From NCBI GenBank assembly GCA_963674965.2, contig CAXXFL010000002.1, positions 288,001 to 352,000 of the forward strand: a stretch of DNA of 64,000 bases, read 5' to 3'. Below, in pieces: positions 47,647-50,425 of this stretch (its first letter is position 1; every line of letters begins with the position of its first letter). Source of the DNA: a bacterium (GTDB taxonomy: Bacteria > RBG-13-61-14 > DATKZS01). The notes under the pieces were generated by a model, which saw nothing but the letters and a program-made list of their open reading frames with translations, was not told the origin of the DNA and ran no database searches. A program made the position numbers and the translations under genes.

Positions 47647-48987
47647 TCAGTCCCCAGCGCAACGAAATCCAAGGCTGTTGTACAGGAACGTCGGGAAGTA
47701 GGTGGTACGGTAAGCCACGCGCAAGTAGGCCGAAGGGTCGTACCAAAGGCCGCCGCGCAAGACGCGATACGTACCTGAAGCGGGACCGGGAGGGTCGTTG
47801 GTTGGACTTGAACTGTAATACGTTGATGAATACCAATCGTTCGTCCATTCATAGACGTTGCCCGTCATGTCGTAAAGACCGTAGCCGTTGGCCGCGTAAT
47901 ACTCAACCTCCGAGGTGTCGTTGTCCCAGGGATCGCCAGAGTTCCAGTAATTTGCATCAGTCCCGCTGATGCTGTCGCCCCAGGGATAGCGCTTTCCGGA
48001 AAGACCGCCGCGGGCAGCGTACTCCCACTCGGCCTCGGTGGGCAGTCTCTTGCCCGCCCAGGTGCAGTAAGCCGTGGCCTGGTTCCAGTCAACGTAGATA
48101 ACAGGGAAGTTGTCATAAGTGGGATTGCCGTAATAAGAGCCTCGGGAATAGCTTGAAGAATTACTCGGAGCCGTGCATCCCCCTCCGCTGACACAGGCCG
48201 CGTACTCAGCGTTGGTTACCTCGTGCACGTCCATGTAAAAGTCAGATGTAATGCAAACGTTATGCACCGGAAACTCATTGCTTTCTCCCTCACCGAACGC
48301 GTCGCCCATGTCGAAGCAACCGGAGGGAATCAGGGCCATGTTGGGGGGGGCGGGGCAGCTCTGGTAGTCGGCGAAGACCTGGAGATAGGCGGTGTAGTGG
48401 CCGGCGGCGACGCTGGTGAACACGAAACTCTGGGAGGCGACGCCGCCGGGTGGTATGCTTTCCTGCCAGGTGTTGGCGCAGCCCTCGGCCGAGCCCGCCG
48501 AGCTGGGGGAATCGTCGGTAATGCAGTAGCCCGAGTCGTTTATCGGCTGGGAGGTGTTGGGAGCGAGGATGAAGTCAACGCCCGGGTCGGTCCAGATATA
48601 GTCGGCCTCGGCCATGATCGCGTCGGGCCTGGTCGAGGAGTTGAACCGGGTGCGGACGTTGTACATGCACTCGTCCGAGTCGAGGTTGTGGAAAACGACC
48701 TCGCAGGTGGCCGCGTAGTTCCCCGCGTCCCACGAGCAGCCGGCCGGACCGTTCCGGACCTCGAGGGTGTGGCCGTTAAGGGCCCCCACCCAGGAGCGGC
48801 CCGGAGCGTCGCCGATCTCGAGCGTCTTGTGGTCGAGGTCAAGGCGAAGCTCGTACACCGCGGCCTCCACCTGGCCAACCGCCGTCTCCCCGGAAGGGTC
48901 GCCGCCCGGCGTCCCGCAACCGAAAGACAGCGCCATCGCCCAAAGGCCCAGCCAAGCCCAAGTCCCTTTAAACTTCTTCGTTCTCAT
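47647..48987 (-). CDS. Lipoprotein with C-terminal FGE-sulfatase (CLec) domain, candidate DGR target 1
   Basis: SFGC lipobox; [22 protein letters not shown] and GFRC motifs. Confidence 0.92.
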
Positions 48988-49084
48988 GGCGATCTCCTTT
49001 TCTCTTTAAAGTCAGTCCGCCGCGCGGAGTGTAGAAACCCTTTCATGGGAAATAGGGTAAAAGGGATAAAGAATCAAAGTGTAA

Positions 49085-50425
49085 TCAGTCCCCAGCACAA
49101 CGGAAGCCAATGAAGTTGTTCTGGACAGTAGGCGAAATGTAGCCCCGGTAAGCTACGCGCAGGCTGTACGAAACGTAGTACCAAAGGCCGCCGCGCAAAA
49201 CGCGAGACGTACCGTACGCGGGACCGGGAGGGTCGTTGGTTGGACTTGAACTGTAATACGTTATTGAATGCCAATCGTTCGTCCATTCCCAGACGTTGCC
49301 CGCCATGTCGTAAAGTCTGTAGCCGTTGGCAGCGTAATATTCAACCTCCGAGGTATCGTTGTCCCAGGGATCGCCCGAGTCCCGGTAATTGGCGTCCGTC
49401 CCACTTATGCTGTCGCCCCAGGGATACCTCTTGCCCGCCAGTCCGCCACGGGTAGCGTACTCCCACTCGGCCTCGGTGGGCAGCCTCTTGCCCGCCCAGG
49501 TGCAATAGGCCGTGGCCTGGTTCCAGTCAACATAGATAACAGGGAAGTTGTCATAAGTAGGATTGCCGTAATAAGAGCTCCGGGTATAACTGTTCGCACT
49601 GCCCGGCGCGGTGCAGCCGCCGCCACTCACGCAGGCCGCGTACTCCGCGTTGGTCACCTCGTGAACGTCCATGTAGAAGTTCGAGGTGATGCAAACGTTA
49701 TGCACTGGAAGCTCATTGCTTGTTATCTCGCCGAAGGCGTCGCCCATATCGAAGCATCCGGCGGGGATGAGGGCCATGTCCGGGGGGGCGGGGCAGCTCT
49801 GGTAGTCGGCGAAGACCTGGAGATAGGCTCTGTAGTGGCCGGAGGAGACGCTGGTGAACACGAAACTCTGGGAGGCGACGCCGCCGGGTGGGATGCTTTC
49901 CTGCCAGGTGTTGGCGCAGCCCTCGGCCGAGCCCGCCGAGCTGGGGGAATCGTCGGTAATGCAGTAGCCCGAGTCGTTTATCGGCTGGGAGGTGTTGGGC
50001 GCGAGGATGAAGTCAACGCCCGGGTCGGTCCAGATATAGTCGGCCTCGGCCATGATCGCGTCGGGCCTGGTCGAGAATTTGAACCGGGTGCGGACGTTGT
50101 ACATGCACTCGTCCGAGTCGAGGTTGTGGAAAACGACCTCGCAGGTGGCCGCGTAGTTCCCAGCGTCCCACGAGCAGCCGGCCGGACCGTTCCGGACCTC
50201 GAGGGTGTGGCCGTTAAGGGCCCCCACCCAGGAGCGGCCCGGAGCGTCGCCGATCTCGAGCGTCTTGTGGTCGAGGTCAAGGCGAAGCTCGTACACCGCG
50301 GCCTCCATCTGGCCAGCCGCCGTCTCCCCGGAAGGGCCGCCGCCCGGCGTCCCGCAACCGAAAGACAGCGCCACCGCCCAAAGGCCCAGCCAAGCCCAAG
50401 TCCCTTTAAACTTTTTCGTTCTCAT
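49085..50425 (-). CDS. Paralogous CLec lipoprotein, candidate DGR target 2
   Basis: Same 446-aa length and architecture as 47647-48987. Confidence 0.92.
   Translation of the reverse strand: MRTKKFKGTWAWLGLWAVALSFGCGTPGGGPSGETAAGQMEAAVYELRLDLDHKTLEIGDAPGRSWVGALNGHTLEVRNGPAGCSWDAGNYAATCEVVFHNLDSDECMYNVRTRFKFSTRPDAIMAEADYIWTDPGVDFILAPNTSQPINDSGYCITDDSPSSAGSAEGCANTWQESIPPGGVASQSFVFTSVSSGHYRAYLQVFADYQSCPAPPDMALIPAGCFDMGDAFGEITSNELPVHNVCITSNFYMDVHEVTNAEYAACVSGGGCTAPGSANSYTRSSYYGNPTYDNFPVIYVDWNQATAYCTWAGKRLPTEAEWEYATRGGLAGKRYPWGDSISGTDANYRDSGDPWDNDTSEVEYYAANGYRLYDMAGNVWEWTNDWHSITYYSSSPTNDPPGPAYGTSRVLRGGLWYYVSYSLRVAYRGYISPTVQNNFIGFRCAGD

Follow-up and report, generated by a model that had tools for sequence, protein, structure and literature searches.

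Variable tips of two adjacent bacterial lectin-domain genes and a related template repeat in a prophage

The gene pair and its variable segment

The window examined here, a 64-kb stretch (C2:288001-352000) of a genome assembly of 6.5 Mb in 7 contigs (97.6% complete), is ordinary chromosome, in which profile searches identify gyrA, ftsK, lolA, ilvD, and chemotaxis genes. It carries two neighboring genes, copy A and copy B, with the same domain architecture, whose products align without gaps (Table 1). A RelB-like/ParE toxin-antitoxin pair (51631-52330) lies directly beside this array of lectin genes. A promoter scan found nothing ahead of A or B.

Table 1. Features of the locus and of the related prophage. 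Positions without a contig label are those of the window; TR, template repeat; VR, variable repeat.
Feature	Position	Strand	Description
Copy A	47647..48987	-	446-aa gene; signal peptide, predicted beta-sandwich domain, FGE-sulfatase/C-type-lectin domain (PF03781, E 7e-62)
Copy B	49085..50425	-	446-aa gene; architecture as copy A (PF03781, E 3e-60)
VR of copy A	47647..47772	-	24/41 TR adenines changed, 10/85 other sites, p=8e-8
VR of copy B	49085..49210	-	23/41 TR adenines changed, 0/85 other sites, p=2e-14
Post-stop segment of B	49054..49084	-	31 nt identical to A's; 9 differences from prophage target's; hairpin missing behind it
Pyrimidine-rich spacer past A stop	47614..47646	-	VR/TR homology ends here; putatively IMH-like
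GC-rich hairpin behind A	47592..47613	-	9-bp stem, GTAA loop, z -2.5; loop and core stem as behind prophage target (z -3.9)
avd stump	47509..47576	-	20 codons, then stop; 60/68 nt identical to start of prophage avd
REP-like palindromic repeat	47375..47509		Truncates avd stump; copies at 46935-47069 and 33790-33924; 17 exact core matches in genome
Partial third tandem unit	47068..47378	-	97% copy of 50375-50685 (paralog C end, leader, first 17 codons of B)
Paralog C, older lectin-domain	50614..51468	-	36/85 non-adenine sites differ from TR; not targeted at present
Paralog D, older lectin-domain	37947..38963	-	23/85 non-adenine sites differ from TR; not targeted at present
Template repeat (TR)	G000:C6:952199-952324		126 nt, AAC-rich, 41 adenines and 85 other sites; found by BLAST of both tips against the genome
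Portal and terminase	C6:960-966k		PHROG matches
Major head, tail sheath, tape measure, tail protein	C6:937-948k		PHROG matches

The N-terminus of the two proteins is hydrophobic and G23-C24 is invariant in 6 of 6 aligned homologs; judging by eye, we take Cys24 to be the lipobox cysteine and A and B to be likely lipoproteins. The PF03781 domain occupies residues 215-444, with the VR at its C-terminus. The N-terminal domain has no Pfam match. Homologs of it were found in 5 of 385 candidates of 245-781 amino acids, all of them with PF03781, and a search with one query did not detect it in 4 genomes of the same family. The structure model is weak (mean pLDDT 40) and unreliable in the lectin domain (pLDDT<50), and a fold search with the N-terminal domain returned generic beta-sandwich matches only (best Z 9.7, rmsd 2.9, 108 residues aligned); the domain is thus predicted to be a beta-sandwich of no named family. 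The best sequence match is formylglycine-generating enzyme (FGE; PDB 6muj, E 5e-48), a member of the same fold family, in which the segment CHDSYC aligns to the variable region. In contrast to FGE, A and B lack the catalytic cysteine pair of the RGGSxxCxxxxC motif. By analogy to TvpA of Treponema denticola, whose structure (PDB 2y3c) was matched with E 1e-21, the two proteins are likely to be displayed on the surface and to bind ligands through a diversified face. Our best guess at their role would be adhesion or partner recognition, with evasion of phage binding as an alternative.

A first-pass annotation had drawn attention to a segment near the C-terminus where A and B differ in 13 of 23 residues, set against only 9 substitutions in the first 215 or so, and had read it as the product of adenine mutagenesis of a template rich in AAC and AAT codons. 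Both counts hold exactly, for codons 417-439 and codons 1-215 of the A/B alignment, as does the retention of the third base in 11 of the 13 differing codon pairs; all seven pairs that it quoted were found. Codons 1-215 are a flattering baseline, however, because the lectin domain is far more diverged: third-position differences number 52 in its 201 codons (216-416) as against 7 in the first 215. Measured against the rest of the domain, the suspected excess of changes at codon positions 1 and 2 persists, with 21 differences at positions 1 and 2 to 6 at position 3 in codons 417-439, as against 28 to 52 across codons 216-416 (p=1.3e-4 by Fisher's test). The segment is likewise enriched in non-synonymous codons (13/23 versus 23/201, p=2e-6); the 23-codon segment was picked post hoc, and the maximum for any 23-codon window inside 216-416 is 6. 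Taken alone, the kept third base is not diagnostic, because most non-synonymous pairs outside the segment keep it as well (16 of 23 within codons 216-416, 7 of 9 within codons 1-215).

Divergence rises abruptly at codon 215. The lectin domain of B is 13.6% diverged from that of A while the N-terminal half is near-identical, and whole-domain exchange has therefore occurred at this locus.

The template repeat and its prophage cassette

The predicted template was recovered from the same genome, on another contig, immediately behind an intact DGR-type reverse transcriptase (RT). Twenty of the 27 nucleotide differences between A and B in codons 417-439 fall on the 32 adenines among the 69 TR sites concerned (p=4e-4), and the other 7 are departures of copy A. 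All 13 flagged residues lie on adenine-containing TR codons, 10 on AAC or AAT and one each on ACG, CAG, and ATA. Ordinary positive selection on the ligand-binding surface, with GC3 bias preserving third bases, would account for the third bases kept elsewhere in the domain, but the genome holds a non-coding template alongside RT and Avd, and none of its 85 non-adenine sites is changed in B; we consider selection of this kind a very improbable source of the pattern. Because A and B match an adenine-rich template at nearly all non-adenine sites, both tips were written by a mutagenic retroelement. The data support the signature described in the first-pass annotation as real and its interpretation as correct, for a class of system that is already known; what goes beyond it is that the template sits on another contig within a prophage and that A and B appear to come from two template versions.

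The cassette is intact, in the order target-Avd-RT-TR, and comprises a gene for a 437-aa target followed by a hairpin, a gene for a 114-aa Avd (PF22296), and the RT gene (PF00078), an open frame of 361 amino acids without stops. Its translation contains GNLTSQ and YVDD, which we take to be RT motifs. When all contigs were scanned without gaps for matches at TR's non-adenine sites alone (at least 55 of 85), 12 places were found, and all 41 adenines are kept solely at C6:952199-952324. The engine sits inside a prophage, since phage structural genes with PHROG matches flank the cassette on both sides, which is the conservative sign of phage association used by Wu et al. From the contig end positions, we infer that the window and the prophage are at least about 630 kb apart if the contigs share one replicon. 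Neither RT, TR, nor a whole avd was found in the 64-kb window by profile search and TR scan. Two other PF00078 proteins in the genome (C7:619k and C4:400k) have no TR-like match nearby. The template can vary 22 codons, giving about 2.4e21 theoretical peptides, and a stop codon is unreachable.

Two further features of the prophage were noted in passing. A run of 12 G follows TTGACA upstream of the prophage target gene (G000:C6, about 955207-955218) and is absent upstream of A and B. Just past TR lies an open reading frame of 1291 amino acids (L004:4025-7900) in which, by eye, two DNA methylase-like parts appear to be joined to a head-scaffold-like C-terminus.

The cassette is probably cargo derived from the host lineage, because its RT is at best 41% identical to relatives in viral contigs (80 loci retained of 100 confirmed, in a search that may have lacked records close to this genome) and 80-97% identical to RT fragments in genomes of the same family. 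No full-length match to the prophage RT was found in 5 relatives, 2 of which hold fragments. Another lectin gene of this genome, at C6:1176k, has a lectin scaffold identical to that of the prophage target (0/558 nt differing), although the avd allele downstream is not the same; prophage and chromosome have therefore exchanged sequence at the DNA level.

Origins of the two tips

Variable repeats were compared with TR at 19 paralog positions, leaving out one without the anchor motif. Besides B, two are near-perfect matches outside adenines, namely the prophage target (23/41 adenines and 1/85 other sites changed) and C6:1176k (25/41 and 0/85). Apart from A, the remaining paralogs show 7-9 non-adenine mismatches in three cases, 19 in one, and at least 23 in ten, some of these last overstated by ungapped counting where lengths differ. 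Wherever A and B differ at a non-adenine site of the VR (10 sites), it is A that has departed from TR. At TR positions 75-84, intermediate states occur in the paralogs at G000:C2:268500-270611, C7:109192-109317, and C4:80523-80648, and the lectin family may record a stepwise evolution of the template.

We propose, with a probability of roughly 0.6, that B was last rewritten in trans from the prophage TR and that A is a fossil of an older template that belonged to its own, now decayed cassette. Following established DGR biology, Avd-RT would copy TR RNA into cDNA, making errors at adenines, and this cDNA would replace the homologous 3' end of any target gene. Up to 22 codons would thereby be re-randomized on the ligand-binding face of a C-type-lectin fold, carried by a likely lipoprotein. 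Historically, chromosomal DGR cassettes of the lineage would have lost avd-RT-TR repeatedly, and the prophage would have captured one cassette together with a host-type target, to become the sole engine found in the assembly.

The part of this proposal that concerns B, its recent rewriting in trans from the prophage TR, seems to us a reasonable though not a secure reading of the sequence comparisons. The scaffold of B differs from that of the prophage target at 117 of 552 nt (21%), and from that of A it differs at 77 of 567 nt. Over the 91 alignment columns just ahead of the VR, 50 informative sites place B with A and 8 place it with the prophage target; at the non-adenine positions of the VR, one site places it with A and 10 with the prophage target (switch p=1e-6). 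It is the 3' half of the VR that bears most of this argument, the 5' half not telling template versions apart. Behind the stop codon B again follows A (Table 1), and B departs from the prophage target as close as 4-5 nt ahead of the stretch homologous to TR and 5 nt past the stop.

That the tract shared by B and the prophage target thus ends within about 5 nt of both TR ends argues against its having been copied at the DNA level, by gene conversion from the VR of the prophage target or of C6:1176k without reverse transcription at B. Such conversion has in its favor the scaffold identity of those two genes and several derived bases that B has in common with the prophage target toward the 3' end, in the second half of the VR (6 of 7, a post hoc count that is not significant over all pairs). 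Over the whole VR, however, derived bases shared by the two number 7 of 16, which is background (2/18 to 10/16 for other pairs), and we judge gene conversion to be quite improbable.

The last rewrite of B was recent, since none of its 37 non-adenine third positions has drifted from TR, which sets a 95% bound of about 8% on neutral divergence. This bears on another account, in which the prophage engine played no part and the same template version was written into B by a chromosomal engine since lost, or in a different cell from which the domain was later imported. The engine whose avd stump remains at C6:1176k is one candidate, and the prophage may have copied its cassette from there. The current TR version does occur outside evident phage context: a target in another genus matches 84 of 85 non-adenine sites (L023, from genome G001), and the 3' half of this TR version recurs at a metagenome locus (L119) that lies beside metabolic genes. 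B could therefore have been written by a chromosomal engine that was later lost, or by an imported module, and the scarcity of RT in the relatives, the mosaic ancestry of the A and B domains, and the missing hairpin behind B all fit this. Against it stand the undrifted third positions, the lack of a donor closer than 13.6% among 7 other paralogs compared, and the single TR found in a 97.6% complete assembly. On balance we hold this account to be unlikely, though it is the one to be taken most seriously beside rewriting from the prophage.

Present activity is a separate matter from the proposed rewriting of B from the prophage. B differs from TR almost only at adenines, as Wu et al. expect of remote targets, but behind its VR, where a hairpin or cruciform would mark a DGR target, there is only a weak fold (z -1.0), so we lower the claim that B is active now. 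In two sequencing runs of one sample, which may be the one the genome came from, the tip of B appears as a single invariant contig of 165 nt, contigs being apt to lose rare variants. Aligning contigs to 46800-50900 recruited mostly paralogs and other organisms; no variant of the tip was seen among 16 of 34 contig pieces, and such loose ends as could be matched by eye belonged to known paralogs. Because B has no hairpin and A is mismatched in the conserved 3' segment, both are probably rewritten rarely or never today. That A keeps a hairpin yet has not been overwritten counts against writing in trans.

For copy A the comparison was extended to 13 regions from six related genomes (best matches), which yielded 9 VR/TR-like stretches. 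At TR positions 75, 78, 81, 84, and 114, the base in A is the majority base in the relatives (8, 5, 8, 6, and 7 of 9). At position 77 the relatives mostly have A (5 of 9) and copy A has T, probably an adenine change that arose on the older template version. Only copy A has its bases at positions 12 and 66, whereas 49 and 108 are mixed among relatives. About 6 of the 10 non-adenine mismatches of A are thus likely to fit an older TR version, the rest being drift. Against the current TR, A is strongly adenine-biased yet beyond the "minor exceptions" that Wu et al. allow for remote targets; it does have the hairpin behind its VR.

Because a hairpin and an avd stump lie behind it, A probably once served as the neighboring target of its own cassette, now dead. 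Since A carries the old template version, that local engine is unlikely to have been the author of the new-version tip of B. The stump is cut short by a REP-like repeat and the partial third tandem unit, and a REP-like repeat joins this unit to a 5'-truncated glycoside hydrolase 97 gene (46034-47026). GC-rich palindromic families of REP-like repeats occupy 33790-34546, 35399-36195, and 46935-47509 of the window, and an adjoining open reading frame (33030-33506) has no Pfam match.

What look like decayed cassettes recur in related genomes. A small toxin-antitoxin pair stands right behind the avd stump at L023:5272-5639, L029:4253-4704, and L032:3377-3810 (G001, G003, and G012), with HicA in 3 of the 3 relatives checked and a HicB-like gene in 2 of 3; by eye, a remnant of the sequence downstream of TR follows the pair in these three relatives. 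At C6:1176k the stump is followed by a DUF433 gene (L005, about 8388-8633). It is as if avd-RT-TR had been replaced recurrently by a toxin-antitoxin pair. Elsewhere in the present genome (G000:C4:80523-80743; L008), the VR of a lectin gene runs into sequence that normally follows TR (85% over 96 nt), a junction that probably arose by recombination between VR and TR with deletion of avd and RT. In one relative (L027:864-1285; G002:C9), about 170 nt separate a VR with its hairpin remnant from a TR that is intact, avd and RT having been deleted between them, and RT fragments occur on other contigs.

More tentatively, and as a picture that we would not yet back at even odds, a temperate phage may have captured a host DGR that now serves as the mobile mutagenesis engine of the lineage. 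While integrated, it would rewrite host surface genes whose own engines have decayed, lysogeny would switch on hypermutation of host genes, and the paralogs would form a time series of template versions.

Relation to known retroelements

DGRs and their remote targets are already known; what is unusual here is a prophage engine with targets among host genes. In the 372-element survey of Wu et al., remote targets were not expected for phage-associated DGRs, with one exception; 10 DGRs had 29 targets more than 100 kb away, and all but one of these DGRs were without evidence of phage association (PMC5758913). For that reason an engine in a prophage whose targets lie on the chromosome is unusual, though it has a precedent. 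Roux et al. note that remote targets were beyond the reach of their survey of metagenomes (PMC8144416). A literature search by titles and abstract openings, covering few subscription papers, found no report of a DGR in a prophage that acts on chromosomal genes of its host.

The closest parallel in the targets is the DGR of Treponema denticola, in which one TR and RT serve scattered FGE-sulfatase/CLec1 targets, TvpA and remote ones; some leftover targets carry excess mutations, and there are strains with targets but no engine (PMC4891356). Shared with the present system are the FGE-sulfatase/CLec1 targets, the C-terminal VR, lipoprotein-type signal peptides, and one engine for scattered paralogs. 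The T. denticola element differs in having an HRDC accessory and the order target-TR-HRDC-RT, and its row in the supplement of Wu et al. lists no phage association (PMC5758913), whereas the order here is target-Avd-RT-TR within a prophage and the paralogs appear to keep several template versions. The same row gives no stem-loop, so the hairpin is not universal among DGRs (PMC5758913).

In gene order the system resembles the DGR of Trichodesmium erythraeum (architecture B2, TG-AVD-RT-TR), which has remote CLec1 targets hundreds of kb away (PMC5758913): Avd-RT-TR follows the target, the targets are FGE-sulfatase proteins, and some are remote. The Trichodesmium element is listed as chromosomal without phage homologs (PMC5758913), unlike the prophage-borne engine described here.

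With Bordetella phage BPP-1 (mtd-avd-TR-brt) the system has in common a phage-borne engine, adenine-specific mutagenesis, and, past the VR, a GC-rich hairpin whose loop is 4 nt long (PMC3240598). The BPP-1 target is a tail fiber, whereas the prophage target here has a signal peptide and belongs to a host family; the loop there is GRNA and here GTAA, and here matching targets lie on the host chromosome (PMC3240598). Disruption of the BPP-1 stem cut tropism switching more than 1000-fold and left a residual pathway (PMC3240598). Copies A and B form a natural contrast in this respect, the one with a hairpin and an old tip and the other with no hairpin and a current tip, which bears on what licenses a remote target. 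A chromosomal gene that matches the template of the only engine found, itself in a prophage, makes phage-supplied hypermutation of host genes testable.
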